A stretch of 64,000 nucleotides of DNA from NCBI GenBank assembly GCA_050309735.1, contig JBNRMS010000017.1:8432-72431 (forward strand), given 5' to 3'. Under the pieces are notes generated by a model. That model did not search any database. It saw nothing but the letters and a program-made list of their open reading frames with translations, and had not been told where the DNA came from. Origin of the DNA: Eubacteriales bacterium (GTDB taxonomy: Bacteria > Bacillota > Clostridia > Oscillospirales > CAG-272). Of the stretch, positions 157 to 49,103 are shown one piece after another. The position numbers and the translations under genes were made by a program. Every line of letters begins with the position of its first letter. The stretch's first letter is position 1.

Positions 157-1662
157 ATGGAAAGACGAATCAAAATTTTTGACACAACCCTGCGCGACGG
201 CGAGCAGTCGCCGGGCTGCAGCATGAATATCGGCGAAAAAATCGAAATCGCAAAACAGCTTGAACTGCTGCGTGTCGACATAATCGAGGCAGGGTTCGCC
301 ATATCCTCGCCGCTCGACTTCAAATCGGTTGAAGCGATATCAAAAAATATAAAGGACTGTGCCGTTGCCTCGCTCGCCCGCGCGGTTGAAAAGGATATCG
401 ACGCGGCATACGAAGCGGTGAAGTCGGCCGTCTCGCCGAGGATTCACACCTTTATAGCCACCTCACCCGTACATATGCAGTATAAGCTGAAGATGACGCC
501 CGACCAGGTGGTCGAGCGGGCGGTGGCCGCGGTTGCGTATGCTAAGAAATTTGTCTCGGATGTCGAATTTTCGGCTGAAGACGCGATGCGCTCCGACCCC
601 GCCTTCCTTGCCCGGGTTGTTGAGGCGGCGATAAGGGCGGGCGCTACAACAGTTAATATCCCGGATACGGTGGGATATGTCGTTCCCGAGGAAATGGCGA
701 GAATGATAAAATATTTGAAAGAAAATGTGCCGAGTATCGACCGGGCGACAATCTCGGTTCACTGCCATAATGACCTTGGAATGGCGGTGGCCAATTCGCT
801 TGCCGGTGTTCTTGCCGGTGCAGATCAGGTTGAGTGCACTGTAAACGGCCTTGGTGAGCGGGCGGGAAACGCGGCGCTTGAGGAAGTGGTGATGGCGATA
901 AAAACCCGCCGCGCCATGTTCGGCTGCTATACCGATATAGAAACAAAGCAGATAAACCGCACAAGCAAGCTGGTCTACAATATCATCGGGCAGACCGCCG
1001 CGATAAATAAGCCGATAGTCGGTGCAAACGCCTTTGCGCACGAGGCCGGAATTCATCAGCATGGGGTTATGGCCGAGAGAAGTACATATGAGATAATGTC
1101 GCCGGAGGATGTCGGAATTGCCAAGACTTCGCTGGTGCTCGGCAAGCACTCGGGGCGCCATGCCATAAAAGAGCGACTGCTCGAAATGGGCTATACCTTC
1201 ACAGAGGAGGAGCTGAGTCTATATTATGAAAAGGTGAAGGCTCTTTCCGAGAAGAAAAAGTTTATCGGAAACAATGATCTTGAAACGATAGTCAATAACC
1301 GCGAGCGCTCGCAGAGCGTTTATCAGCTTGAGTATTTTGACGTCCATACCACTCGGGGCTCACGCGCCACCTGCGTGATAAGACTGAGGAAGGAGGGTGA
1401 GGTGCTTGAGGAGGTTTCGCTCGGTGACGGTCCTATCAACGCAGCCTATGCGGCAATCGACAAAATTACGGGCAACCTCTGCGACGAACTTTCAAATTAC
1501 GCTATTCACTCGGTTTCGGGCGGAAACGACGCGCTCGGCGAGGTGACTGTTAAGCTAAGAGCGGGCGAGCGGACGGTGACCGGGCGGGGGCTTTCAACCG
1601 ACATTATTGAATCAAGTATTCTTGCATATGTAAACGGCATAAACAAGCTGCTCGAAGTCTAA
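157..1662 (+). CDS. leuA: 2-isopropylmalate synthase
   Basis: 501-aa ORF. N-terminal IFDTTLRDGEQSPG aldolase signature and HCHNDLGMAVAN metal site, followed by a LeuA C-terminal regulatory domain. First gene of a leu cluster. Confidence 0.9.
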   Translation: MERRIKIFDTTLRDGEQSPGCSMNIGEKIEIAKQLELLRVDIIEAGFAISSPLDFKSVEAISKNIKDCAVASLARAVEKDIDAAYEAVKSAVSPRIHTFIATSPVHMQYKLKMTPDQVVERAVAAVAYAKKFVSDVEFSAEDAMRSDPAFLARVVEAAIRAGATTVNIPDTVGYVVPEEMARMIKYLKENVPSIDRATISVHCHNDLGMAVANSLAGVLAGADQVECTVNGLGERAGNAALEEVVMAIKTRRAMFGCYTDIETKQINRTSKLVYNIIGQTAAINKPIVGANAFAHEAGIHQHGVMAERSTYEIMSPEDVGIAKTSLVLGKHSGRHAIKERLLEMGYTFTEEELSLYYEKVKALSEKKKFIGNNDLETIVNNRERSQSVYQLEYFDVHTTRGSRATCVIRLRKEGEVLEEVSLGDGPINAAYAAIDKITGNLCDELSNYAIHSVSGGNDALGEVTVKLRAGERTVTGRGLSTDIIESSILAYVNGINKLLEV

Positions 1663-1678
1663 GGGGGAGGCAGATATT

Positions 1679-3262
1679 TTGAACAGACAAAGAATAGAAA
1701 TACTTGACTCAACCCTGCGGGACGGAGCGCAGGGCGAGGGAATATCCTTCTCTGTCAATGATAAAATTCATATCGTAAAAACTCTTGACAATCTTGGGGT
1801 TGACTATATCGAAGCCGGAAATCCCGGCTCAAATCCAAAAGACCTTGAGTTCTTTGAGCGTGCCTCAAAGCTTTTGCTCAAGCGCTCAAAACTCTGCGCC
1901 TTCGGGAGCACACGGCGGCACGGTGTTGCCCCGTCCGAGGACGCAAATATCAAGTCTCTCCTTGCGGCGTCAACTCCGGTGGTTGTGATATTCGGCAAGT
2001 CGTCCGACCTTCATGTCCGCGAGATACTTAAAATCAGCCCTGAGGAAAACCTTCAAATGGTGCGCGATACGGTGGAATACCTCAAGCAAAACTCAAAAGA
2101 GGTGATATTCGACGCCGAACACTTTTTCGACGGCTATTTCTCCTCGCCCGAGTATGCCATGAGCGTCCTTCGCGCGGCCGCCGAGGGCGGTGCCGACGCC
2201 CTTGTTCTCTGCGATACAAACGGCGGCACGCTGCCGCTCGATATAGAGAAGATAACAAGGCAGGTTGTGGGGGTCTTTCCGGACAGGAAAATCGGAATAC
2301 ACTGCCACAACGACACCGACTGCGCCGTTGCAAACTCAATGCTCGCGGTGGGAGCGGGCGCGCTTCATGTTCAGGGAACGCTGATCGGAATCGGGGAGAG
2401 ATGCGGAAATGCCAATCTCTCGGCCATAATCCCGAATCTTGTTCTCAAACGCGGGTATGACTGCGCAGCAGACCTCTTGCTCCTTTCCGAAACAGCCGGC
2501 AAGATTGCGGAGATATCAAACACGCCGCTTGGCGGAGGCCGACCCTATGTCGGCTCGGGCGCATTTGCGCACAAGGCCGGAATGCATATCGACGGAGTGC
2601 TCAAGCTGCCTAAATCCTTTGAGCATATCGACCCGTCGGCAGTGGGAAACAAGCGCAGATTTTTGATGTCCGAGGTTTCCGGGCGCAGCACGGTGCTCAA
2701 TAAAGTAAAAAACTTCATCTCAGGGCTTGACAAGGACTCGGCCGAAATTTCGGCGATTCTTGAAAAGCTCAAGGAAATGGAGCATTATGGCTACCATTTC
2801 GAGGCGGCAGACGCCAGTTTTGAGCTGCTCGTCAAGCGTGTGCTCGGGATGTACCGCCCCTCCTTCAGGATAGTGCTCTATAAAACAATGGGAGAATTCC
2901 CGTTTCCCGAGGGCGGGATGCCGGCGTCGGCAACAGTCAAGGTTGAGGTCGACGGAAAAGAGGAGATAACAGCGGTGATGGGCGAGGGGCCGGTAAACGC
3001 CCTTGACCTCGCACTGCGAAAGGCGCTGGTCGTCTTTTATCCTGCCATTCGCAATATGCGCCTTATCGACTACAAGGTTCGCGTTCTTGAGCAGAACAGC
3101 TCAACGGCGGCGCGTGTGCGTGTGCTTATCGAAACTGCCGACGAAAATTCAACCTGGACGACTGTCGGCGTGTCAAACGACATACTTGAGGCGAGCCTTA
3201 TCGCACTGGTTGACTCGTTTGAATATAAATTATCCATGAAAGAGGAGAGTGCGCATGAATAA
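1679..3262 (+). CDS. cimA: citramalate synthase-type (LeuA-related) enzyme
   Basis: 527-aa ORF with [18 protein letters not shown] and [13 protein letters not shown] motifs; its length and sequence style fit the citramalate-synthase branch. TTG start 8 nt after a GGGGGAGG RBS. Lies between leuA and leuC. Confidence 0.75.
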
Positions 3263-4526
3263 AATGACAATGACCCAAAAAATCCTCGCTGCCCATGCGG
3301 GCAAGGCATCGGTGAGGGCGGGCGAAATAGTGCTTGTCGGGGTCGACATGGTGCTCGGAAACGACATTACCTCGCCCGTGGCGATAAACGAGTTCTCGCG
3401 CATGGGGCGCGATAAAGTTTTTGACGGCTCAAAAGTTTCGCTTGTGATGGACCATTTCGCCCCGAACAAGGATATCAAAGCAGCCGAGCAGTGCAAGGCT
3501 TGCCGCGAATTTGCCTCTGAGATGGAGATTGAGAACTATTTTGAGGGCGGCGAGATGGGAGTTGAACACGCGCTTCTGCCCGAGCGCGGTCTGGTTACGG
3601 CCGGCGACCTTATAATCGGTGCCGACTCGCACACCTGCACCTATGGGGCGCTCGGCGCCTTCTCAACCGGTGTCGGTTCGACCGACATGGCAGTCGGTAT
3701 GGCGACCGGCAGGGCATGGCTCAGAGTTCCGTCTGCGATGAAATTTAATCTTTTTGGCAAGCTCGGAAAATGGGTCACCGGCAAGGATGTTATACTTCAT
3801 ATTATCGGGATGATAGGAGTTGACGGTGCGCTTTACAAGTCAATGGAATTTACCGGGGAGGGTATTGGCACTCTGTCGGTCAGCGACAGGCTCTGCATGG
3901 CCAATATGGCTATTGAAGCCGGGGCGAAAAACGGCATATTCCCGGTCGACGACAGGACAATTGATTATCTTAAGGCGGCCGGCGCTAAGCTTCCCGTTAT
4001 ATACGAGGCAGACGAGGGCGCCGAATACGAGGCCGTCTATGACATTGACCTCTCGAAAATAAAGCCGACCGTTGCTTTCCCGCACCTGCCCGAGAACACG
4101 CGCACCTTTGATAAGATTGATGAAATCAAAATTGATCAGGTGGTAATAGGTTCCTGCACAAACGGGAGATACGAGGATCTTGCCGCCGCCGCGTCGGTAC
4201 TCAAGGGAAGGCACGTGGCAAGAAATGTTCGTGCGATTATCATTCCCGCCACCCAGAAAATTTATCTTGACGCGATGGAAACCGGCCTTTTAAAAATCTT
4301 CATCGAGGCGGGTGCCATTGTTTCGGCACCGACCTGCGGCCCCTGCCTTGGAGGACACATGGGAATCCTTGCCAGAGGCGAGAGGGCGGTGGCGACTACA
4401 AACCGCAATTTTGTCGGACGGATGGGCCATCCTGAGTCAGAAGTCTATCTTGCAAGCCCTTATGTCGCGGCAGCAAGCGCTGTGACGGGTAAAATATCAA
4501 GCCCTGAGGAGGTAATGGGAGAATGA
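3255..4526 (+). CDS. leuC: 3-isopropylmalate dehydratase large subunit
   Basis: Aconitase-family large subunit with GADSHTC and CGPCLG Fe-S ligand motifs. I moved the start to the ATG at 3255, 8 nt after GAGGAG (the track ORF starts at GTG 3249). Confidence 0.9.
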
Positions 4527-5020
4527 AGGTCAGCGGAAAAACATTTAAATACGGAGCCAACGTCGACACAGACGTTATAATCCCGGCAAGATACCTCAAC
4601 ACAACCGACAAGAAAGAGCTTGCCGCCCACTGCATGGAGGATATAGATCGCGATTTTGTTAAAAATGTAAGGGTCGGCGATATAATTGTCGCAGGGCGCA
4701 ATTTTGGCTGCGGCTCTTCGCGGGAGCACGCGCCGATAGTCATAAAAGAAAGCGGAATTTCGCTTGTTATCGCCGAGAGCTTCGCGCGGATTTTTTACAG
4801 AAATTCAATCAATATTGGCCTTCCGATAGTCGAATGTCCAAAGGCCGCTCGCGAAATTGAGGCGGGCGACACCGTCGAGATGGATTTCGACACAGGCCTT
4901 ATAAAAAATATTACGCAAAACAAAGAGTACAAGGCACAGCCCTTCCCGGACTTTATACAGTCGATAATCAGGTCGGGCGGGCTTGTAGAGGCGGCGAGGG
5001 CGGGGGTTCTCGGCGAATAG
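4523..5020 (+). CDS. leuD: 3-isopropylmalate dehydratase small subunit
   Basis: 165-aa aconitase swivel domain ([13 protein letters not shown]). ATGA start/stop overlap with leuC. Confidence 0.9.
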
Positions 5021-5116
5021 CCTCGGGGCGTTGTGCCGTAGATTGACCTGCAGGTGTCATCTTGGCCACCCGAGAGCAGATGAGTAATAGTGAATAAAGA
5101 ACGGAAGGTATAGATT

Positions 5117-6166
5117 ATGAAGCTTGACATAGCCCTCCTTAAGGGCGACGGAATAGGACCTGAGGTGGTTGACAGAGCAATTGAGGTTCTCGACCGGGTG
5201 GCCGCAAAATTCGGTCATGAAATAAAATACACCCCTCTTCTTGCCGGCGGCTGCGCTATTGACGAGATAGGCGAGCCGCTGCCGGCTGAGACTGTTGACA
5301 GATGCCTTGAGAGCGATTGTGTGCTGCTCGGCGCCGTTGGTGGGCCAAAGTGGGACAATCTGCCCGGACATCTGCGTCCTGAGAGGGCGCTGCTCGGCAT
5401 AAGGGGTGCGCTCGGTCTTTTTGCGAATATCCGCCCGGCTAAGCTCTATCCGGCTCTGGCCGACAGGTGTCCTCTGCGCGGAGGTGTTGATTTTGACATG
5501 GTAATCGTGCGCGAGTTGACCGGCGGGATGTATTTTGGTGAGAGCGGCCGTCGCGAGGGGAAATATGGCCCCGAGGCTTATGACACCGAGTGCTACAGCG
5601 TGGCCGAAGTAGAGCGGATCGGTCGCGTGGCCTTTGAGAGTGCCATGAAGCGGAGAAAAAAGGTTACAAGCATTGACAAAGCGAATGTTCTCGAGAGCTC
5701 CCGCCTCTGGCGCGAGACTATGCACCGGCTGGCCGCCGAATACCCGGAGGTTGAATATTCGGATATGCTTGTCGATAATGCGGCAATGCAGCTCATAAGG
5801 GATCCTGTGCAATTTGACGTTATCGTAACCTCAAATATGTTCGGAGACATCCTCTCGGACGAGGCCTCCCAGCTCACCGGTTCTATCGGAATGCTGCCCT
5901 CGGCCTCGCTCGGCGAGAGGAAGCGCGGCCTATATGAACCGATTCACGGCTCTGCTCCCGATATCGCCGGCAAAAACATGGCAAATCCGATAGCAACCAT
6001 ACTCTCATCTGCCATGATGCTGCGCTACACTTTCGGACTTGTCGCCGAGGCAGAGTGTATCGAGCGCGCGGTTGAAGAGACTCTTAGCGCCGGACAGATC
6101 ACTAAAGACCTTGGCGGCACGCTCGGAACCGACGAGATAACCGCAAAGATAATAAGCCGAATCTGA
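5117..6166 (+). CDS. leuB: 3-isopropylmalate dehydrogenase
   Basis: 349-aa isocitrate/isopropylmalate dehydrogenase family protein ([26 protein letters not shown] signature). Confidence 0.9.
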
Positions 6167-28040: not shown

Positions 28041-28616
28041 TTACCCTGTAACCTCGAAATAGGCGAAGAGCGGCGTGCAGGTTTTACCTACATAAACAAT
28101 TGCCCTGTATTCCCCGGCTGTTAGTTTTGGGAAAATTCTTTTTTTCTTTATTGTTACATGTGCTCTTTCGCTCCCTGAACCGAAGTAATGCCATTCATTA
28201 TCGGTGTAAAGATAGTGAATCCGCTCCCACACATTGCCGCTTAGCCGTTCTATTCTCGGGGTATTGCAATAATAAAATGTATCGAACCCTTGCCCCGCCC
28301 CCGTGTCAAAACGGGTCAATATTTCAGCATTAACGCATTCTACCTTTATAATAATTTTCTCAATATCTTTGCTATACTGCCCACATTCGGGATAACAAAT
28401 AAAATCGTCGCCGCTGTATATCACATCGGGAAAGCCTTCGGGGTATGTCGGATCGGGACTTCCGTCGGGATGGTCTTTCCAATTATCATAAAATTCAGGC
28501 GGGTAACCGAGTCTCATCCATTCGTCAAGATTATGCGGTGTATTATCATTTTTTTTACAAGAAGCGAAAGGCACACACATAGCGACTGCCATGCATAAAA
28601 GAACAAACTTTTTCAT
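28041..28616 (-). CDS. Hypothetical lipoprotein in an AT-rich islet
   Basis: MKKFVLLCMAVAMCVPFASC signal peptide and lipobox. The gene and its flanks are visibly AT-richer than the surrounding genes. Start moved to the M of MKKF. Confidence 0.6.
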   Translation of the reverse strand: MKKFVLLCMAVAMCVPFASCKKNDNTPHNLDEWMRLGYPPEFYDNWKDHPDGSPDPTYPEGFPDVIYSGDDFICYPECGQYSKDIEKIIIKVECVNAEILTRFDTGAGQGFDTFYYCNTPRIERLSGNVWERIHYLYTDNEWHYFGSGSERAHVTIKKKRIFPKLTAGEYRAIVYVGKTCTPLFAYFEVTG

Positions 28617-28944
28617 AAAATTATACATTGAAAGCCTAAACGTTACACGCAGGCAAGTTTTGCTGTTGTGCATGGTTCCTACCTCCGTCTTTCATATTAT
28701 TTTGTTGTCATTATGTATCTTTTCCATATTTTATCACTACGCCAAGGGTTTGTCAATGATTTTAATCAAAGCTTGTATGTTTTCACTATAATGTTTGTAC
28801 GTTTTCACTATAAAATTTGTGACATTAACATCATTTATAAGGTCGAGATTTGTCTTTCTCTCTTTTTTGCCGAACGCTTTTTCATTTTATTGCCGCTATA
28901 GCTTTCTCAAAGGTCGGCGGGAAAACTAAGTTTTTTACAAGTAA

Positions 28945-28981
28945 AATCCGGTTGAAAGCGTTTTTATCTTTCAACCGGATT
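28945..28981 (-). terminator. Terminator of the symporter-ligase operon
   Basis: 14-bp perfect stem AATCCGGTTGAAAG/CTTTCAACCGGATT about 25 nt after the ligase stop, followed by a T-run. Confidence 0.7.
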
Positions 28982-29006
28982 TTGTTTATCATGCAATAAA
29001 AGTCAG

Positions 29007-30650
29007 TTATTCCGCCTCAATCTCGTTCTGCGCCGCAACAAGGCTTGTTCCGCAATATTTTTCGCGGAGCTTGGGCTTTTCAATCTTGCCGGTGGGGTTG
29101 CGGGGTACAATATCGAAGATTATTTTCCTCGGCCGTTTATAGCGGGGCAGGGCAAGGCAGAATTCATCAAGCTCGGCCTCGGTGAGCAACTCGCCCGGCT
29201 TAACCTCGACTATCGCCGCGGCAATCTCGCCCAGACGGACGTCGGGCAGTCCTATCACCGCTGCGTCTTTGATCATATCGTGTTTTCTGATGAAGTTTTC
29301 GATTTCAACCGGATAGAGGTTTTCTCCGCCCGTGATAATAACGTCCTTCTTGCGGTCTACAAGGAAGATGAAGCCGTCTTCGTCCTCGCGCGCCATATCT
29401 CCTGTCAGAAGCCAGCCGTCTTTGAGAATTTCGGCGGTTGCAGTTTCGTTCTTATAATAGCAGCACATGACGCCGGGCCCCTTTACGCAGAGCTCGCCGA
29501 CCGAGCCACGCGGTGTGGGTTTGCCGGCTCGGTCGATAATTTTGGTTTCCCAACCAAACCCAGCCTTTCCTATCGCGCCGACCTTATGTATATTTTCGAC
29601 CCCGAGGTGTACGCAGCCGGGTCCTATAGATTCGGACAGGCCATAGTCGGTGTCGTATTCGTGGTGCGGGAAAACTGCCTTCCAGCGCTTGATCAGTGAG
29701 GGCGGAACCGGCTGGGCGCCGATGTGCATAAGACGCCACTGCGAGAGGTTGTAGTCATCAGGATTAATATCGCCCCGGTCTATCGCATCAAGTATGTCCT
29801 GAGCCCACGGCACAAGCAGCCAGACTATGCTGCACCTCTCCTCTGAGACTGTGCGAAGAATCCATTCAGGCTTTGCGCCCTTTAGCAGCACCGAGCGCCC
29901 CCCGACAAGCAAGCTGCCAAACCAGTGCATTTTTGCGCCGGTGTGATAAAGGGGCGGGATGCAGAGAAAAACGTCGTCATGGGTCTGGGAGTGGTGGGTT
30001 TGCTCGACTATGCAGGAGTGGACGAGCGCCGAGTGCTTATGCAGAATAGCCTTTGGGAAGCCGGTCGTGCCCGAGGAGAAATAGATAGCTGCGTAGTCGT
30101 CGTCGCAGATGTCTATGTCGGGTGCGCGCGAGGTGGCGTAGGTGACAAGCTTGTTGTAGCTCTCGGCAAAGGTAGGGCAGTCGTCTCCTACATAGAAGCG
30201 GTGTTTAACCTTTGGAATCCGGTCGCTTATCTCCTCGACCCGGCCGACAAACTCGGGGCCGAACACCAGAACATCGGCGTCGGACAGGTCGGCGCAATAT
30301 TTTATTTCGTCGGCGGTGTAGCGATAGTTCATCGGAACGGCAAGAGCGCCCGACTTGAGAATGCCGAAATAAATCGGTAGCCATTCAAGGCAGTTCATCA
30401 AAAGGATCGCAACTTTGTCGCCCTTCTTAATGCCGCGCGAGAGCAGCAGATTCGCGAAGCGGTTGGCTTTTTTATCGAAGTCGCCCCAGGTCATCTCTGT
30501 GCGAAAGGGGGCGTTTGCATTTGCCTCGATAAGGGCATATTCCTTCCAGGTAACCTGTTTTTCGTCGGGCAGGGAAGGGTTAATCTCGACAAGGGCAACC
30601 TCGTCGCGGTAAAGCAGGGCGTTCTTGGCGAGAGTTTGGGTAATCGGCAT
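29007..30650 (-). CDS. AMP-forming acyl-CoA synthetase/ligase
   Basis: AMP-binding motif YFSSGTTGFPKAI, TGD motif LLTGDMAREDEDGFIFLVDRKKD, and a C-terminal PRNPTGKI. Start set at MPITQ (AAAGGAA RBS), 28 nt after the symporter stop. Confidence 0.9.
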   Translation of the reverse strand: MPITQTLAKNALLYRDEVALVEINPSLPDEKQVTWKEYALIEANANAPFRTEMTWGDFDKKANRFANLLLSRGIKKGDKVAILLMNCLEWLPIYFGILKSGALAVPMNYRYTADEIKYCADLSDADVLVFGPEFVGRVEEISDRIPKVKHRFYVGDDCPTFAESYNKLVTYATSRAPDIDICDDDYAAIYFSSGTTGFPKAILHKHSALVHSCIVEQTHHSQTHDDVFLCIPPLYHTGAKMHWFGSLLVGGRSVLLKGAKPEWILRTVSEERCSIVWLLVPWAQDILDAIDRGDINPDDYNLSQWRLMHIGAQPVPPSLIKRWKAVFPHHEYDTDYGLSESIGPGCVHLGVENIHKVGAIGKAGFGWETKIIDRAGKPTPRGSVGELCVKGPGVMCCYYKNETATAEILKDGWLLTGDMAREDEDGFIFLVDRKKDVIITGGENLYPVEIENFIRKHDMIKDAAVIGLPDVRLGEIAAAIVEVKPGELLTEAELDEFCLALPRYKRPRKIIFDIVPRNPTGKIEKPKLREKYCGTSLVAAQNEIEAE

Positions 30651-30678
30651 TTGTGTGAGTGTTCCTTTCTGAGTTTTA

Positions 30679-32217
30679 TCAGGCGCCCTCGCCGTCAAGT
30701 TCGGATATCGGGCGGTTGTAGCAGGCGAAGGCATCGTCTATGAATTTTTTATCAGGCGCTTTTGTAAACAGGCTTACCAGCGGCACTATTATAAAGCCCG
30801 AGAGCATAGCAAATGCGCCGCAGTTTATGGGCGACTGAAGTATTTCGGGGAAGCTTGATTTAAAAAGCATATTTGCAATCATCAGTGTTACGCTGAAGCC
30901 AAAACAGACAAAGGCCGCCGCCTTTGTGCTGCGCTTCCAGTAAAGGCTGAAAAGATAGGGCGCGAGGAAGGAACCGGCAAGGGCGCCCCATGAGATTCCC
31001 ATGAGCTGGGCGATATGTGCGAAATTGAATTTATACTGGAGAATGGCGATAGTTGCCGAGATAATTATGAAAAATGCGATAAGAACGCGAATATAGAGCA
31101 TTTGCTGCTTTTCCTTCATGTTCTTGATGATGTTTCCCTTAATGAGGTCAAGTGTCAGTGTCGAGCTTGAGGTCATCACGAGCGCCGAGAGGGTTGAAAT
31201 TGAGGCAGACAGCACAAGAATAACCACAAGACCAATGAGAATAGGGCCGAGATTTTCAAGCATGGTGGGGATTATTATATCGTATCCTCCCGAGGAAATG
31301 TCGATATCAAATATCCGGCCGAAGGCGCCGAGAAAATAGCAGCCGCCGGCGATTATAATTGCAAAGAGGGTTGAAATAAGCGTGCCGTTTCTAATCGCGG
31401 CCTCGTCCTTAACGGCATAAAATCTGCCTATCATCTGAGGCATTCCCCATGTTCCGAGCGATGTAAGGACTATAACTCCGAGCAGCGAGAGCGGGTCTGC
31501 CCCGAAAAAGGAGGCGAATCCGCCGGGGTTAACCCCCTCTGCGCTGACATTTGAGAGCTTTGCGACAGCCTCGGTGAATCCTCCCTGCACATTCAGCAGC
31601 GCAAAGATAACCGCGACTATACCCGCGAGCATGATGATGCCCTGAATAAAGTCGTTAACCGCCGTGGCGACATATCCGCCCAGCACGACATAAACACAGG
31701 TCAGCGCCGACATCAGGACTATGCACCAGGCGTAGTCAATACCGAATGCCATTGTAAACAGGCGGGAGAGACCGTTGTAGAGCGAGGCGGTGTAGGGGAT
31801 GAGGAAAACAAAGACTATTAGCGAGGCGGCGATTTTAAGCGCGCGGCTCGAATAGCGTTTGCCAAAATAGTCGGGCATAGTTTTGGCGTCGAGCCGGTGT
31901 GTGATTATCCGGGTTCTGCGCCCGAGCACTATCCAGGGGAGCATCGAGCCGAGAAAAGCATTTCCAAGGCCTATCCAGGTTGAGGCGAGTCCGAATTTCC
32001 AGCCGAACTGTCCGGCGTATCCGACGAATATAACTGCTGAAAAATAAGATGTTCCGTAGGCGAAAGCGGTGAGCCAGGTTCCCACTGCGCGCCCGCCGAG
32101 CACAAAGCCCGACACATTTCCCGCGCGGGTGCGGCACCGTATGCCAACATAGATTGTGACCGCGAAAAAGAGGGCGAGCATGGCGACCTTGATTATCATA
32201 GCGGCTGTTTCTGACAT
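30679..32217 (-). CDS. Sodium:solute symporter (SSS) family transporter
   Basis: About 512-aa polytopic protein. N-terminal SSS pattern FVLGGRAVGTWLTAFAYGTSYFSAVIFVGYAGQFGW. Start set at MSETAAM, which has an AAGGAAGGA RBS. Confidence 0.8.
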   Translation of the reverse strand: MSETAAMIIKVAMLALFFAVTIYVGIRCRTRAGNVSGFVLGGRAVGTWLTAFAYGTSYFSAVIFVGYAGQFGWKFGLASTWIGLGNAFLGSMLPWIVLGRRTRIITHRLDAKTMPDYFGKRYSSRALKIAASLIVFVFLIPYTASLYNGLSRLFTMAFGIDYAWCIVLMSALTCVYVVLGGYVATAVNDFIQGIIMLAGIVAVIFALLNVQGGFTEAVAKLSNVSAEGVNPGGFASFFGADPLSLLGVIVLTSLGTWGMPQMIGRFYAVKDEAAIRNGTLISTLFAIIIAGGCYFLGAFGRIFDIDISSGGYDIIIPTMLENLGPILIGLVVILVLSASISTLSALVMTSSSTLTLDLIKGNIIKNMKEKQQMLYIRVLIAFFIIISATIAILQYKFNFAHIAQLMGISWGALAGSFLAPYLFSLYWKRSTKAAAFVCFGFSVTLMIANMLFKSSFPEILQSPINCGAFAMLSGFIIVPLVSLFTKAPDKKFIDDAFACYNRPISELDGEGA

Positions 32218-32294
32218 AAAATATTCCTTCCTTAAATAATTTCCGCGGGTATTCCCGCTGATTTTACGGGATAAAATCCCGATTCTCGGAGGAC

Positions 32295-32600
32295 ATAAAA
32301 AACGCCCTCCGTATCTAAATGATACAGAGGACGACAATTCGATTGCCGTGTTACCACCTCAGTTTATCGAAGCCTCGCGGCTCCGACCTCATCGGGTACG
32401 ATAATACCCCTCCGCGCTAACGGGCGGTCCCGTCGGAGCCTACTTGTGATTGAAGGGGGCTGACACGCACCCGTCGCAAACTTTCGGTCCGCTCCTCGCG
32501 GAATGTATTCGCCCTGCCTTGCATTGCCGCCTTTCACCATCCGGCGGCTCTCTGAAATGCGCGGGCAGGCCTACTTATTTCCGGTCACTGCATTTATGGC
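32295..32600 (-). promoter_or_regulatory. T-box riboswitch leader, apparent Tyr (UAC) specifier
   Basis: Minus strand. Stem I with AGUA, AGAGAG bulge and GGUGAAAGG distal loop. Specifier loop GCGAA-UAC-A (codon = plus 32505-32507). T-box AAACUGAGGUGGUAACACGG (32365-32346). Terminator 32333-32295 competes with the antiterminator. Confidence 0.85.
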
Positions 32601-32603
32601 GAA

Positions 32604-32632
32604 ATTATAACATCATTTTTCGAGCTTGTCAA
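32604..32632 (-). promoter_or_regulatory. Consensus promoter of the T-box operon (TTGACA-17-TATAAT)
   Basis: Minus-strand TTGACA at 32632-32627 and TATAAT at 32609-32604. Confidence 0.65.
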
Positions 32633-43835: not shown

Positions 43836-46800
43836 ATGAATCAAAAGCAGTACATAAATCCGGGAAAGAATACTGTAATCCGCGCCGCCTGCGTTTTTCT
43901 GTCGGCGCTGATTCTTCTTGGCGTTATTTTCCCGTTCGTAAATTTGAATAATGACAAAGGCGAGCCCGAGGGCTTTGTCTTTTCGGGCTCAGCCTTCACC
44001 TCAGACGGAGTAAACGACCTGCCCGAGGAGTTGTCCTCGGTGAGCGTGACGGCTAATAACGACCGCTCGGCGATAATCCCGGTCGATTCATATTTCACAA
44101 TCAAAACAACGGGCGCAACCGACCCCGAAACCCTCTCAAAATATCTGACCGTGACCCCGACTGTATCCTTCACTCTTAGCACACTGTCGCCGACCGAATT
44201 TCTTCTCACCCCCGCCGCCCGGGAGCTTGACGCCGGCAGGATTTACAGCTTTACGCTCGGCAACCCTGAAAATCCGGTCAGCAGCTACACTTTTCAGACC
44301 GAGAGCGAACTGGCCGTCAAAAGTCTGCTTCCGGCAGATCTTGCGGTGGGTGTTCCTCTCAACGCAGGAATCGAAATTGCCTTCACCGAATCTGTAAGGA
44401 ATGTAAAATTTGAAAATTATATAAGCATATTGCCGAAAATTAAGGGGAATTTTGAGCTTTACCCCGACGGGCGCACTGTGGTTTTTGTTCCCGACGAAAA
44501 TCTCGCTCCGAACACTGTTTATACAGTGCAGGTGAAACAAGGGATAACCTCCTCCTCGGGCAGAGAGCTCAAGCAAGCTCATGAGGCAAAATTCCGCACC
44601 GGAACCGAAGAGACATCGAGCGGCAAGGAGACTATGAAAATATACTCCGAGAACACCAAGACTATATTCTCGCCCCACGAGTATCCGACTATTTATTACA
44701 ACCTATCAAATATAGATAGAAAAACACCCAAACAGAGCGACATCGCAGTTGAGATTTGGCGATACAGCTCTGCAGACGATGCGATATCTGCCATGAAGGA
44801 CTATGAAGGGCAGCGCGCCAACTATCTATATTCCGAGGATAATTATCTTTTCCCGACTAAGGGACTGACGAATGTCGGCAGCTATAATATAGCCCCGGTG
44901 AGCACAGGCAGCAACAACTATTCTGTTCAGTCATATTTTTCGCTCCCGCAGCTTGAGGAAGGGATATATCTTGTTAACTATATTGTATCCGGGCAGTGGG
45001 GCGGCGGCGAATACAAGAAAAGTATGCAGACCATAATTCAGAGCACAAACCTGCGGGTTCATACCGAGAGCAGCTACGGAAATACGCTTTTCTGGGTCAA
45101 TAACCTAAAAGACAGCCGACCCGACCAAGCGTCCGCCGGCCCGGCAGCCGGAGCAACCGTCACCGCCCAATGCTTTAATCGGATTAATTCCTGGAATACC
45201 GAGGGCGGGGCAGCGTCCTACACGACGCTTACCGGCATAACAGACGCCAGCGGACTGGCAATTATTGAGAACGGCGACACAAACGCGGCATATGTGAAAA
45301 TTGAGCATGGCGGCGAGGAGACAATAATCCCCCTTTTGGCAAATGCCGATGCTGAGATTAAATATTTCTGCAAATATATATTCACAGACCGCGAGGTTTA
45401 TTTTCCGGACGACAGTGTTAATTATTACGGAGTCCTCACCCCCGGCGGTGAAGAGGTGCTGCCCTCCCGGCTCTATGTCTATGTCGGCAGTATACCCTAT
45501 GGGTCGGTGGCTCTTGGCACCGACGGCTCCTTCTCGGGCAACATACCAATCGAGAACTACACAGGGTACGCCCTTTATATCAGGTTTTGCACGTCGGATG
45601 GAGCGCTTGTCGCCTCGAAATATGTAAGGGTGACGCAGGAGGATAAGCCGGTTTATCGCGCATCACTTAGCTTTGATAAGCTTTTCTATGAGTTTGGAGA
45701 TACAATCACCGCCACCGTTACTGCCTCCTTTTTTGACGGTACCCCGGCGCCCGGTCTTCGCTTCAGGATGAGAGCCGACAACCCTTTTGTATATGACGGT
45801 GAAGTTGTCACCGGTGCCGACGGGAGTGCTTCGATAAGCATAAAAACGACGGCATACCCCGGCGCAAACTCGACATATCCAATTTCGATATGGGTTTCTG
45901 CCTACTTGACGGGATATGAAACCTCCTCGCTTAGTCTTTACAAATCGGTTTATTATTTTCACAGCGAAAACCAGCTTCGCACCGAGCGGATAAACGGCGA
46001 CTATTCGGAGGTTTACCTCAATAAAACCGATACCACACGCCTTAGGACTCAGGCTGACCTCAACTATCCCGCCTTCCCCGAGAATATATACGGAGCCCCG
46101 GCTCGGGGCAGCGTGAAGGTTAGCCTCATAAAGCGAGAGTTCTTGCGGGTGAGAACCGGCACAAGATACGACCCGATAACCAAAACCACAATAGAAGACT
46201 ACACAACCCGGTTGTCCGACAGCGTGATAAGGAGCTACACGGCCGAATTTGAGGACGGCAAAATCAGGCTTGAGCATATGAGCGCCGAAGGTTTTAACGG
46301 ATACTATTTTTATGAGATATCCTACTATGACGCCAAGAACGGCGCAGATTATGTGTTGGCAGTCTATGCTCTTAAGAATAATTACAGGCTGCATGATAAC
46401 GATTCGTGGTACTACTACAAAATTATAACAGACAAAGAGGCATACTCGGAGGGCGATACCGTCAGCGTCTCATATCTTTACAACGGCATAGCGCCAAAGG
46501 GCAAGATTCTCTACACGCTTTACGATTCAGAGGGCTTTGCCGGTAGCATGGTTGGAGAGTCGGACTTTAGCTTCAGGTTCACCGACAGCATGGCGCTCTT
46601 CTGCCAGGTATATGCCACAGCTCTTGACGGCTCGGAGTTCAAAACGCAGTCCGGGCATATCAGGTACGATTACGAGGCCGACAATATACTCGCGGTCGAA
46701 GTCCTGCCCGACAAAGAATCCTACGCGCCCGGCGAGGGGGCGGCGGTTAGACTGCGCGTGACAGATAAAGAGGGGCGGCCGGTTGCGGGAGTTGTCCTTC

Positions 46801-49103
46801 TCTCGGTGGTAGACGAGGCCTGCTTCGCGCTCGGCGATCAGACACTCTCGCCCCTTGGTTCTTATTTCTCCTCGGTCGGCGGCTCGCAAAGGCTTCCTTA
46901 TGACCTGCTTTCGAGTTATTACTCTGATTATTGGTATTACTACGGCTACAGCTCCCCGATAATCTCGATATCGGTTAACGGGAGATTTAATATATTCCGC
47001 GAGATATCGATAAACAACGAGACATTATACTATCTCACCGACAGCGTGGCAGCCGAGGCGGCGGATAGTCAAAAAGCACCTCAGAATAGCGGGTCGGCTG
47101 AGAGCGCTATATATATCCGCGAAAACTTCTCCGACAACCCGGTTTTTGAGGTAATAAAGCTGGGAGAGGACGGTACGGCACTCTTTAGCTTCACAGTTCC
47201 GGACAATATCACCGAGTGGAGAATAAGTGCGCTTGCATATGGCAATATCTCCTCGCAGAAGGTTACCGAGCGCAAGCTCGGCAGCCGAGTGTCGGGCGTG
47301 ATATGCACTCTCCCCTATTTTATCAATCTCTCGGCCTGCGAATACTATATCGAGGGAGACGACGTCACCCTCTCAGCGCGCTCCTACGGCAGAGCGCTCG
47401 TCAGCTCACAAGCCGTTGAATACAGCGCTACTGTCTATGATGGCGCGGGCAAGAGAGTAGGCAGTCTCAAGCTTTCGAGCAAGAGCGGCGAGCAGGCTTG
47501 GTTCAATTTCGGCAGACTGCCGACAGGCAGCTACAGCGCCGAGGTGAGCGCTGTTTGCGGCAAATACAGCGACGGCGTCCGGGTGAACTTCTCTGTGGTG
47601 GTAAGCGGCAATATAGTCGACGTTCGGCGCGATATATCAATTGACCAAATAAAGACGCTAACACCCCTTACCTATCCGCTCACTCTCTCCTTCTACAACT
47701 CGGCCTACGACAAATATATAGACGCTCTGAATCAAATCAACCGCAATTATAGCGACGCGCGGAGCGATGCGCTGGCGGCTCGCTATGTAGCGCTCACAGC
47801 ATCCGAGAAGCTTTTCGGCTTGGGCGGCATAGGGTCGACCGCCGAAATTTCTGCAACCCTTAATTCAAGGGGGAGCGGACTTATTCCCCTTCTTGAATAC
47901 AGCGAGGGCGACATTGAGCTTACGGCCAAGATCTGCGCTGTTGCCCCCGAGGCGCTCTCAAGCTATCGCAAGGCTGATATAATAAATACGCTAAGCTCCT
48001 ATATCGACGCCAAGAAATATACCGACCCGACCGAGCTTGCCGCCGCCCTCCTTGCCCTTGGAGCGCTGGGTGAGCCGGTGCTCGACCGGGTATATCATAT
48101 CGCTTCAAGCCACACCTCCTTCACCGTTGAGACAAAGCTCTATCTTGCGGCGGCTCTTACCTATATAGGCGACTTTTCAGCGGCAAACGAGCTTCTCGCG
48201 CTGATAAAAACCGAGGCGGGCAGCGAGGCCGAGGGCGGCGAATATTACATCAAAGGCGATAACACCGAGGAGAGCATAAAGCTCACCTCGCTTGCCCTTC
48301 TCACCGCCTCCCGGCTCTCTCGAATTGATGCCGAGAAGATGATACGATATCTGCGCACTCATGTTTCCACACTTGAATACTACGGCCTTGAGATTGCCGC
48401 TTATGTGAAATATTTCATGCCGACCGAGAGGGTCGAGTCGCTGCTCTCCTACCGCTTCGGCGAGGGTGAGGTTGAGAAGGTTTCCGTTCGTGCCGGCGGC
48501 GCATATGTGCTGAGGCTGACAAAAACCGGATTTGATTCGCTCCAGATCCTTGAGGCAGACCCGTCCCTTCGTGTGCGCGCCGCATATGGCGGCTCGCTGG
48601 CCGACGCCACAGACGGCGGGCAGAAAACAGGCGAGCTGACCATTACCAAAACCATAACCCCCCACGATGCTGCGGGAGGACTTTATAAGGTGACGATTAG
48701 CTTCAGCGGCAAAACAGACCGAGCATATTCAAGCTTCAGTGTCTCGGACTGCATTCCGACCGGCGCGCGATTTGTGTCAAATCATATTGGCTATAACGAC
48801 GGCTGGGTGACCGTTTCCGGTTCAAAGCAGATGAGTGCCTTCATTTATCATGAGGGCGGGCAGAAGATGCGCGCTTCAATCTGGATCTCGGCACCGTATA
48901 TGAAAAAGGCAAAATGGAATGAAATAGTACCCGAATATAGTTTCTCGGGCAGCCTTTCCTATATCATACGGGGGGCCGTGACAGGTTCTTTTGTGACCGA
49001 GGAAACCCTGATTCAAAATTTCACTACCGGCAGCTATGCCGTCAGCGATCGGATGTACATTACAATCGGAGACGGTAAATGGACTGTTGACAGCATAGAA
49101 TAA
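43836..49103 (+). CDS. Alpha-2-macroglobulin-family giant surface protein (no thioester motif)
   Basis: 1755 aa. N-terminal signal anchor. SbsA/BIg-like N-terminal domain (LLPADLAVGVPLNAGIEIAFTE..V). A2M_N-like VVLLSVVDEACFALGDQ. A2M signature FSDNPVF...LGEDGTA.FSFTVPDNITEWRISALAY. Helical TED-like repeats. I found no CxEQ motif. Confidence 0.65.
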   Translation: MNQKQYINPGKNTVIRAACVFLSALILLGVIFPFVNLNNDKGEPEGFVFSGSAFTSDGVNDLPEELSSVSVTANNDRSAIIPVDSYFTIKTTGATDPETLSKYLTVTPTVSFTLSTLSPTEFLLTPAARELDAGRIYSFTLGNPENPVSSYTFQTESELAVKSLLPADLAVGVPLNAGIEIAFTESVRNVKFENYISILPKIKGNFELYPDGRTVVFVPDENLAPNTVYTVQVKQGITSSSGRELKQAHEAKFRTGTEETSSGKETMKIYSENTKTIFSPHEYPTIYYNLSNIDRKTPKQSDIAVEIWRYSSADDAISAMKDYEGQRANYLYSEDNYLFPTKGLTNVGSYNIAPVSTGSNNYSVQSYFSLPQLEEGIYLVNYIVSGQWGGGEYKKSMQTIIQSTNLRVHTESSYGNTLFWVNNLKDSRPDQASAGPAAGATVTAQCFNRINSWNTEGGAASYTTLTGITDASGLAIIENGDTNAAYVKIEHGGEETIIPLLANADAEIKYFCKYIFTDREVYFPDDSVNYYGVLTPGGEEVLPSRLYVYVGSIPYGSVALGTDGSFSGNIPIENYTGYALYIRFCTSDGALVASKYVRVTQEDKPVYRASLSFDKLFYEFGDTITATVTASFFDGTPAPGLRFRMRADNPFVYDGEVVTGADGSASISIKTTAYPGANSTYPISIWVSAYLTGYETSSLSLYKSVYYFHSENQLRTERINGDYSEVYLNKTDTTRLRTQADLNYPAFPENIYGAPARGSVKVSLIKREFLRVRTGTRYDPITKTTIEDYTTRLSDSVIRSYTAEFEDGKIRLEHMSAEGFNGYYFYEISYYDAKNGADYVLAVYALKNNYRLHDNDSWYYYKIITDKEAYSEGDTVSVSYLYNGIAPKGKILYTLYDSEGFAGSMVGESDFSFRFTDSMALFCQVYATALDGSEFKTQSGHIRYDYEADNILAVEVLPDKESYAPGEGAAVRLRVTDKEGRPVAGVVLLSVVDEACFALGDQTLSPLGSYFSSVGGSQRLPYDLLSSYYSDYWYYYGYSSPIISISVNGRFNIFREISINNETLYYLTDSVAAEAADSQKAPQNSGSAESAIYIRENFSDNPVFEVIKLGEDGTALFSFTVPDNITEWRISALAYGNISSQKVTERKLGSRVSGVICTLPYFINLSACEYYIEGDDVTLSARSYGRALVSSQAVEYSATVYDGAGKRVGSLKLSSKSGEQAWFNFGRLPTGSYSAEVSAVCGKYSDGVRVNFSVVVSGNIVDVRRDISIDQIKTLTPLTYPLTLSFYNSAYDKYIDALNQINRNYSDARSDALAARYVALTASEKLFGLGGIGSTAEISATLNSRGSGLIPLLEYSEGDIELTAKICAVAPEALSSYRKADIINTLSSYIDAKKYTDPTELAAALLALGALGEPVLDRVYHIASSHTSFTVETKLYLAAALTYIGDFSAANELLALIKTEAGSEAEGGEYYIKGDNTEESIKLTSLALLTASRLSRIDAEKMIRYLRTHVSTLEYYGLEIAAYVKYFMPTERVESLLSYRFGEGEVEKVSVRAGGAYVLRLTKTGFDSLQILEADPSLRVRAAYGGSLADATDGGQKTGELTITKTITPHDAAGGLYKVTISFSGKTDRAYSSFSVSDCIPTGARFVSNHIGYNDGWVTVSGSKQMSAFIYHEGGQKMRASIWISAPYMKKAKWNEIVPEYSFSGSLSYIIRGAVTGSFVTEETLIQNFTTGSYAVSDRMYITIGDGKWTVDSIE

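Follow-up and report, generated by a model that had tools for sequence, protein, structure and literature searches.

When a cell runs short of an amino acid, the corresponding T-box leaders switch on genes that increase its supply (PMC2494555, PMC7778990). The targets described by Wels et al. comprise tRNA ligases, amino acid biosynthesis genes, and amino acid transporters, and those of tyrosine T-boxes in the Bacillus cereus group include the NhaC-family BA4353, tyrosine biosynthesis genes, and phenylalanine hydroxylase; genes under T-box control can be annotated from their specifier (PMC2494555). The locus described here lies on the minus strand of a 64 kb stretch of contig JBNRMS010000017.1 (Eubacteriales bacterium, assembly GCA_050309735.1), referred to below as the window, and consists of a T-box leader with a tyrosine (UAC) specifier followed by two genes, one for a Na+:solute symporter (SSS) and the other for an AMP-forming acyl-coenzyme A (CoA) ligase. 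The reading favored here, to which a probability of about 0.6 is assigned, is that this operon would salvage 4-hydroxyphenylacetate into tyrosine, via CoA ligation and reductive carboxylation by indolepyruvate ferredoxin oxidoreductase (IOR). As in the known T-box-controlled transporter and biosynthesis genes, the accumulation of uncharged tRNA would lead to a better supply of the amino acid concerned, whereas the step under control in the window would be the uptake and CoA activation of a carboxylic acid precursor.

The conversion of aryl-acetic acids to Phe, Tyr, and Trp in anaerobes has been known to rumen microbiologists since the 1960s. IOR enzymes use phenyl-, 4-hydroxyphenyl-, and indolepyruvate as substrates, and in methanogens they have been proposed to run in reverse for biosynthesis. 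The bacterial genes, direction, and regulation of this route have so far been poorly defined. Reductive carboxylation of arylacetates is documented in rumen bacteria and methanogens (PMC6827263, PMC6737245), and the presence of AMP-forming arylacetate-CoA ligases beside IOR has been argued to indicate the biosynthetic direction (PMC13285125). The iorAB-PaaK(-ACT) clusters of methanogens and Bacteroides (PMC13285125, PMC6737245) resemble the system described here in that its ligase is also clustered with iorA in 38 related loci, and the proposed chemistry, leading from arylacetate through arylacetyl-CoA and arylpyruvate to the amino acid, is identical. They differ from it in that the ligase of the window belongs to a FadD/4CL-like subfamily (4CL, 4-coumarate-CoA ligase), that the system described here has, in addition, a dedicated SSS importer and a riboswitch that senses tRNA, and that ior is not adjacent in the window.

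The leader matches the Rfam T-box covariance model (RF00230) over its full length (model positions 1-219 of 219) with 105.0 bits, above the gathering score of 93 (E 4e-22), and RF00230 is the only Rfam family that reaches the gathering score across the window. Its architecture is that of the Bacillus subtilis tyrS leader, with which it shares the kink-turn (K-turn) of Stem I, the GAA-UAC-A loop, the AG bulge, the distal loop, Stem II and Stem IIA/B, Stem III, the UGGU T-box, and the competing antiterminator and terminator; in B. subtilis, however, the gene under control encodes tyrosyl-tRNA synthetase, and in the window a transporter and a CoA ligase. In the covariance model alignment UAC takes up the codon positions of the Specifier Loop, immediately 5' of the conserved purine at its 3' end, where an earlier, sequence-only reading of the locus had placed it when it proposed a T-box of tyrosine specificity. 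The tRNA-elbow platform formed by the AG bulge and the distal loop of Stem I is intact. The discriminator base of tRNA-Tyr is A73, which is not unique to this tRNA, a circumstance that also counts in favor of a leader with a shifted specifier frame (AUA, Ile, or ACA, Thr). The variable base of the T-box bulge pairs with the discriminator base of the tRNA, and in UGGU this base is a U that would pair with A73 (PMC7778990).

Terminator and antiterminator have the sequence CGUCCUC in common and are mutually exclusive, the terminator being the stronger fold (-21.2 kcal/mol, z -6.8, with none of 200 shuffled sequences as stable) compared to -11.1 kcal/mol for the antiterminator, which bears out the competition suggested earlier. 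All features listed in the sequence-only reading are found within 2 nt of where they had been placed; for the terminator, drawn there at 32333-32295, the stem and the U-run stand, but the U-run ends at 32297. The promoter, described there as a consensus TTGACA-17-TATAAT, indeed matches the consensus in 12 of 12 positions and is the best site of the region in a promoter-site scan. Judged by these features, the leader is a canonical transcription-attenuating T-box specific for tRNA-Tyr, with a predicted response to this tRNA. A perfect palindromic hairpin, GCGGGAAUACCCGC, is present at 32245-32258, between the T-box terminator and the ribosome-binding site of the symporter gene; the folding of the whole 79-nt spacer is not significantly better than that of shuffled sequences (z -1.8).

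The association of this leader with the ligase is conserved. Relatives of the ligase were collected from one genome per GTDB species, which yielded at least 599, and the best 80 loci (70-84% identity to the ligase) were analyzed; they include Ruminococcus albus and R. flavefaciens, as well as metagenome-assembled genomes (MAGs) labeled Lentisphaerae, Victivallales, and Thermoguttaceae, taxon labels that may carry binning errors. The family is tightly conserved, with hundreds of database proteins at least 74% identical (Clostridia, Oscillospiraceae, and Acutalibacteraceae MAGs). The leaders recognized first were used to build a profile, and this, run with nhmmer against the loci, showed that the ligase is preceded by a homologous leader in 21 of the 80 (185-283 bits); Rfam confirmed a T-box in all 12 leaders tested (99.8-123.7 bits); no second T-box, whether for Phe, Trp, or any other amino acid, was found in the 12 T-box loci scanned with Rfam. 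The genes follow the leader in three orders, T-box-symporter-ligase in 11 loci, T-box-ligase in eight, and T-box-ligase-symporter in two. Since the T-box stands directly before the ligase in eight loci and the ligase comes first in two more, the ligase is the conserved target and the symporter is optional. In a neighbor-joining tree of the ligases the T-box loci occur in several clades and are intermixed with T-box-free ones, so that the linkage of T-box and ligase is not the accident of a single lineage.

UAC is present in all 22 leaders (the 21 related ones and that of the window), within an invariant AAUAC, and is followed by A in 21 of them and by C in one. AGAGA and G-UG are also invariant, and RNAalifold, applied to the 22 leaders, recovered the helices below and above the loop as well as the distal hairpin; 16 of 17 pairs show compensatory changes, both bases being altered in one or more sequences. 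UGGU and a terminator hairpin can be read in the window and in 20 of the 21 related leaders, the exception being L078, where no motif was detected. In a scan for other riboswitches or T-boxes, no Rfam element was found upstream of the ligase or symporter in 11 loci (10 lacking a T-box before the ligase, and L043, described below). Ligase orthologues at 70-71% identity also occur in MAGs of other phyla (L048, L052, and L075, labeled Lentisphaerae or Victivallales; L066 and L071, Thermoguttaceae), a distribution that points either to a recent exchange of the gene between gut and rumen bacteria or to errors of binning.

The second conserved linkage connects the ligase with IOR. All open reading frames (ORFs) of the 80 loci were clustered, and downstream neighbors were counted only in loci with enough downstream sequence. 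Four same-strand neighbors recur downstream of the ligase. The first is IorA, an equivalog match to TIGR03336 (750 bits, over the cut-off of 651), and the second IorB (NF005325, 290 bits, over the cut-off of 230); the third is a PaaK-type ligase, which carries PF14535 and scores 534.9 bits against TIGR02155, under the cut-off of 646, and the fourth an ACT-pair protein (PF19571). The iorA gene is found in 38 of the 70 loci with at least 1.9 kb of downstream sequence, directly adjacent to the ligase in 33 and usually accompanied by iorB, whereas the PaaK-type ligase occurs in 22, and the ACT-pair protein in 19, of the 59 loci with at least 4.3 kb. Among the T-box loci with enough downstream sequence, 12 of 18 have iorA, and 11 of these 12 also have iorB. 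In one locus, L003, the last gene encodes a class I/II aminotransferase. The ligase has a neighboring SSS gene of the symporter's subfamily (36-76% identity) in 29 of the 80 loci. The window, as well as its closest relative, L001, holds only the minimal T-box-symporter-ligase unit.

Less frequent neighbors were also observed. A gene for a PaaI-like hotdog thioesterase (TIGR02286, 57 bits, under the cut-off) lies near the ligase in L037, L045, L048, L060, L072, and L080, R. flavefaciens being among them, an arrangement compatible with proofreading of aryl-acetyl-CoA. An Amidohydro_2 gene (PF04909) is inserted between symporter and ligase within the Tyr T-box operon of L031 (2935-3726), L032, and L047, and is located downstream in L077; this family includes aromatic-acid decarboxylases as well as hydrolases, and its product may release or modify the imported acid. 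An OLE RNA (RF01071, 487 bits) is found at L032:11974-12609, a few kb downstream of the T-box operon.

The coordinates of all elements of the operon are collected in Table 1. The two coding regions are 28 nt apart, and the signal scan found no promoter-like or terminator-like site within this gap, in agreement with the single operon assumed in the sequence-only reading, whose assignment of the two products to the SSS and AMP-forming ligase families is likewise upheld by the Pfam matches given below. The program-made ORFs (30679-32337 and 29007-30734) extend beyond the true starts of the symporter and the ligase, respectively. The hairpin at the end of the operon has a folding energy of -22.9 kcal/mol (z -5.9, with none of 200 shuffled sequences as stable). 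Past this terminator there is a separate promoter-like site, TTGACA-17-TAAAAT (28756-28728, 11 of 12 matches), and then a putative lipoprotein of 210 aa that belongs to no Pfam family (window 28041-28756 region), which lies outside the T-box operon.

Table 1. Promoter, leader RNA elements, genes, and terminators of the operon, in window coordinates.
Feature	Position	Strand	Details
Sigma-70-type promoter	32604..32632	-	TTGACA 32632-32627; 17-nt spacer; TATAAT 32609-32604; TG before -10
T-box leader, class I transcriptional, full length	32324..32597	-	Rfam RF00230 covariance model
Stem I	32491..32590	-	K-turn region, Specifier Loop (AGUA ... GAA-UAC-A), AG bulge, distal loop
Stem I motif	32579-32570	-	AAUAAGUAGG; direct sequence reading
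AG bulge	32553-32548	-	AGAGAG; direct sequence reading
Distal loop	32542-32530	-	GGAUGGUGAAAGG; direct sequence reading
Specifier codon (Tyr)	32505..32507	-	UAC; covariance model alignment; conserved purine A next, at 32504
T-box sequence	32346..32365	-	AAACUGAGGUGGUAACACGG, UGGU bulge; sequence reading and covariance model alignment
Antiterminator helix	32327..32360	-	GAGG[UGGUAAC]ACGGCAAU-CGA-AUUGUCGU-CCUC; folding
Intrinsic terminator	32297..32333	-	Stem 32333-32303 (13 bp, 5-nt loop); U6 32302-32297
Na+:solute symporter (SSS)	30679..32217	-	ATG 32217, stop 30679; 512 aa; ribosome-binding site AAGGAAGGA upstream
AMP-forming acyl-CoA ligase (ANL superfamily, FadD/4CL-like)	29007..30650	-	ATG 30650, stop 29007; 547 aa
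Operon-end hairpin terminator	28943..28983	-	16-bp stem, then UUUUACUUG

The ligase consists of an AMP-binding domain (PF00501, E 1.7e-73, 248 bits) followed by AMP-binding_C (PF13193, 40.6 bits), and the motifs SSGTTGFPK, YGLSE, TGD, and PTGK (within PTGKIEK, motif A10 with the catalytic Lys) are readable in its sequence. The best of its NCBIfam families is PRK06187 (410 bits, cut-off 476), and every curated NCBIfam cut-off is missed. The closest solved structures, with E values from 6e-70 to 3e-56, are those of FadD5, FadD13, feruloyl-CoA synthetase (8wev), and the 4-coumarate-CoA ligases (5bsm, 3a9u), with which the enzyme shares the ANL fold and motifs; its context differs from theirs, being that of aromatic 2-oxoacid metabolism and not of beta-oxidation or phenylpropanoid synthesis. 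It is not of the PaaK type, a family of about 430 aa with AMP-binding_C_2 at the C terminus, as it has no match to PF14535 in Pfam and TIGR02155 is not among the best 25 of 108 NCBIfam families.

The symporter matches PF00474, the profile of the Na+:solute symporters (TC 2.A.21), over residues 38-437 (E 3e-57, 194.8 bits, threshold 22.8) and falls marginally under the cut-off of TIGR00813 (179.7 bits compared to 184). Membership in PF00474 is shared with PutP, PanF, and ActP/MctC, and thus with carriers that provide a precedent for carboxylates (pantothenate, acetate, monocarboxylates); the phenylacetate permease of Pseudomonas, PhaJ, is also an SSS carrier. The top NCBIfam scores of the symporter, both under the cut-off, are for PutP (186 bits, cut-off 515) and PanF (168 bits), and it is no equivalog of either ActP (TIGR02711, 49.6 bits, cut-off 1099) or MctC (NF058657, 74.1 bits, cut-off 670). 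The likeness to ActP/MctP-type carriers drawn in the sequence-only reading is therefore not upheld.

The following sequence of events may be proposed. When uncharged tRNA-Tyr accumulates, the antiterminator would be stabilized and RNA polymerase would read into the two-gene operon. The symporter would then import an aryl carboxylate, and the ligase would turn it into the CoA thioester; we infer that this acid is most likely 4-hydroxyphenylacetate, an excretion product of other gut and rumen anaerobes, and the thioester 4-hydroxyphenylacetyl-CoA. With reduced ferredoxin and CO2, IorAB, working in the anabolic direction, would reductively carboxylate the thioester to 4-hydroxyphenylpyruvate, from which an aminotransferase would produce tyrosine. 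Many relatives have the iorAB genes immediately after the ligase gene, and in the genome of the window these genes, as well as that of the aminotransferase, are presumably located elsewhere. That T-box genes are induced when the cognate amino acid runs short agrees with a supply pathway and not with catabolism (PMC2494555). The conserved linkages of the Tyr T-box with the ligase, and of the ligase with iorA, thus support the conversion of an aryl acid into tyrosine suggested in the sequence-only reading, in which 4-hydroxyphenylacetate as the substrate keeps the standing of a prediction. For the whole of the FadD/4CL-like ligase family widespread in gut and rumen bacteria, we consider the chances slightly better than even that it represents a dedicated 4-hydroxyphenylacetate-CoA ligase, part of a tyrosine salvage comprising an SSS importer, the ligase, IorAB, and an aminotransferase.

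Several observations weigh against this salvage route. About 70% of the orthologous loci lack both a T-box and any other Rfam element, and numerous orthologues, among them the ones of R. albus and R. flavefaciens, stand alone in unrelated contexts. A Pfam scan of the 46 ORFs of the window found no ior, aro, tyrA, or aminotransferase gene, and hence neither the oxidoreductase nor the aminotransferase to which the sequence-only reading had pointed. As the ligase is only about 30% identical to the closest solved structures and is not PaaK-type, its specificity is unreadable from homology, and the symporter, judged by its profile scores, is closer to PutP and PanF than to the known monocarboxylate or phenylacetate permeases. 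Finally, where the T-box is followed by the ligase, iorAB, paaK, and the ACT-pair gene, a signal for Tyr alone would govern enzymes expected to serve Phe and Trp too.

In the likeliest of the alternatives, the T-box and pathway are the same and the ligase, together with the symporter, is broad, accepting phenylacetate, indoleacetate, and 4-hydroxyphenylacetate, with tRNA-Tyr merely the starvation signal adopted by this lineage for aromatic-acid salvage. In seven loci one Tyr T-box stands ahead of the ligase, iorAB, paaK, and the ACT-pair gene, and the six of them scanned with Rfam have no second T-box; moreover, IOR accepts all three arylpyruvates, and the PaaK-type ligases of Bacteroides are described as arylacetate-CoA ligases (PMC13285125). 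However, the presence of two different ligases per operon suggests split specificities, and the absence of any Phe or Trp variant among the 22 specifiers speaks for tyrosine, so that broad activity is a real but minor possibility.

It is improbable that the ligase acts on a different acid with the tyrosine skeleton, such as 3-(4-hydroxyphenyl)propionate, p-coumarate, or 4-hydroxyphenyllactate, and that tyrosine is reached by a route not involving IOR. The presence of feruloyl-CoA synthetase (8wev) and the 4-coumarate-CoA ligases (5bsm, 3a9u) among the closest solved relatives would agree with such a substrate, as would the abundance of phenylpropanoids in plant-fed guts, but the genes that recur near the ligase are iorAB, PaaK, and ACT, and no recurrent dehydrogenase, hydratase, or lyase is found there; an established anaerobic route from such acids to tyrosine is also not known.

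Even less credence can be given to the symporter importing tyrosine itself, or a peptide or another amino acid, with the co-transcribed ligase unrelated to tyrosine supply. The top NCBIfam score of the symporter is indeed that of an amino acid carrier, PutP, and amino acid transporters under T-box control are common (PMC2494555), but the eight loci in which the Tyr T-box directly precedes the ligase with no symporter, as well as the two in which the ligase comes first, are difficult to reconcile with this explanation. Although shifted specifier frames are considered in TBDB (PMC7778990), it is very improbable that the leader is read in the Ile or Thr frame mentioned above, or that it is a decayed relic that constitutively terminates or is read through, since UAC occupies the canonical site directly 5' of the conserved purine in the covariance model alignment and in all 22 leaders, each structural module is intact, and Rfam gives scores of 100-124 bits for the window leader and 12 related ones.

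A different T-box was encountered in one of the related loci. At L043:1815-2050, a T-box of 95.7 bits with the Specifier Loop AA-CUC-A (Leu), the only T-box found in the 11 loci scanned, is positioned upstream of a gene (2111-4657, split in the MAG) whose product joins a xylose-isomerase-like TIM barrel to an AMP-binding ligase. The intact fusion comprises 840 aa and is common in Ruminococcus and Oscillospiraceae. A general association of T-boxes with acid-CoA ligases was considered on this account and dropped, as a T-box is missing from four further loci with this fusion gene. In L083 (4001-10258) and L084 (289-6546), the 840-aa fusion is clustered with genes for a PaaK-type ligase, for an ACT-pair protein, and for an SSS symporter that shares 50% identity with that of the window, in what is apparently another module for the activation of aryl or alkyl acids.

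The window genes around the operon include leuA/cimA-leuCDB, ligA, adhE, a Ca-ATPase, citrate synthase, spoVT, and tsaD. The first of these groups (157-6166) is a cluster of leuA, a second HMGL-LeuA_dimer protein that is citramalate-synthase-like, leuC, leuD, and leuB, the upstream leader of which lies past the window edge. A plus-strand ORF of 1755 aa is located at 43836-49103. The presence of spoVT, together with the nearest relatives of the ligase, points to a spore-forming member of the Clostridia.

In comparison with the systems described so far, the riboswitch is canonical and the chemistry of the pathway physiologically known; what appears new is the membership of this pathway in the T-box regulon. 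No CoA ligase of the ANL superfamily and no SSS carrier is found among the T-box targets of Wels et al. (PMC2494555), and no pairing of a T-box with an acyl-CoA ligase or indolepyruvate was found by full-text searches of the literature, a mention in Vitreschak 2008 (PMC2271356) being not excluded. Because genes switched on when tRNA-Tyr is uncharged should supply tyrosine, the T-box acts as a built-in functional label, which offers a testable annotation for an abundant, generically named ligase family and for a subfamily of SSS carriers, and also an argument for the anabolic use of IOR in Clostridia. If the salvage of 4-hydroxyphenylacetate is correct, the Tyr T-box would be the first regulatory evidence for the biosynthetic direction of bacterial IOR operons. 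It would also establish a link of cross-feeding, in which 4-hydroxyphenylacetate released by tyrosine fermenters would be recycled to tyrosine by other bacteria, with relevance to the gut pools of 4-hydroxyphenylacetate and p-cresol, and the T-box regulon would be widened from synthetases, de novo biosynthesis, and amino acid transporters to the scavenging of the fermentation end-products of neighbors.

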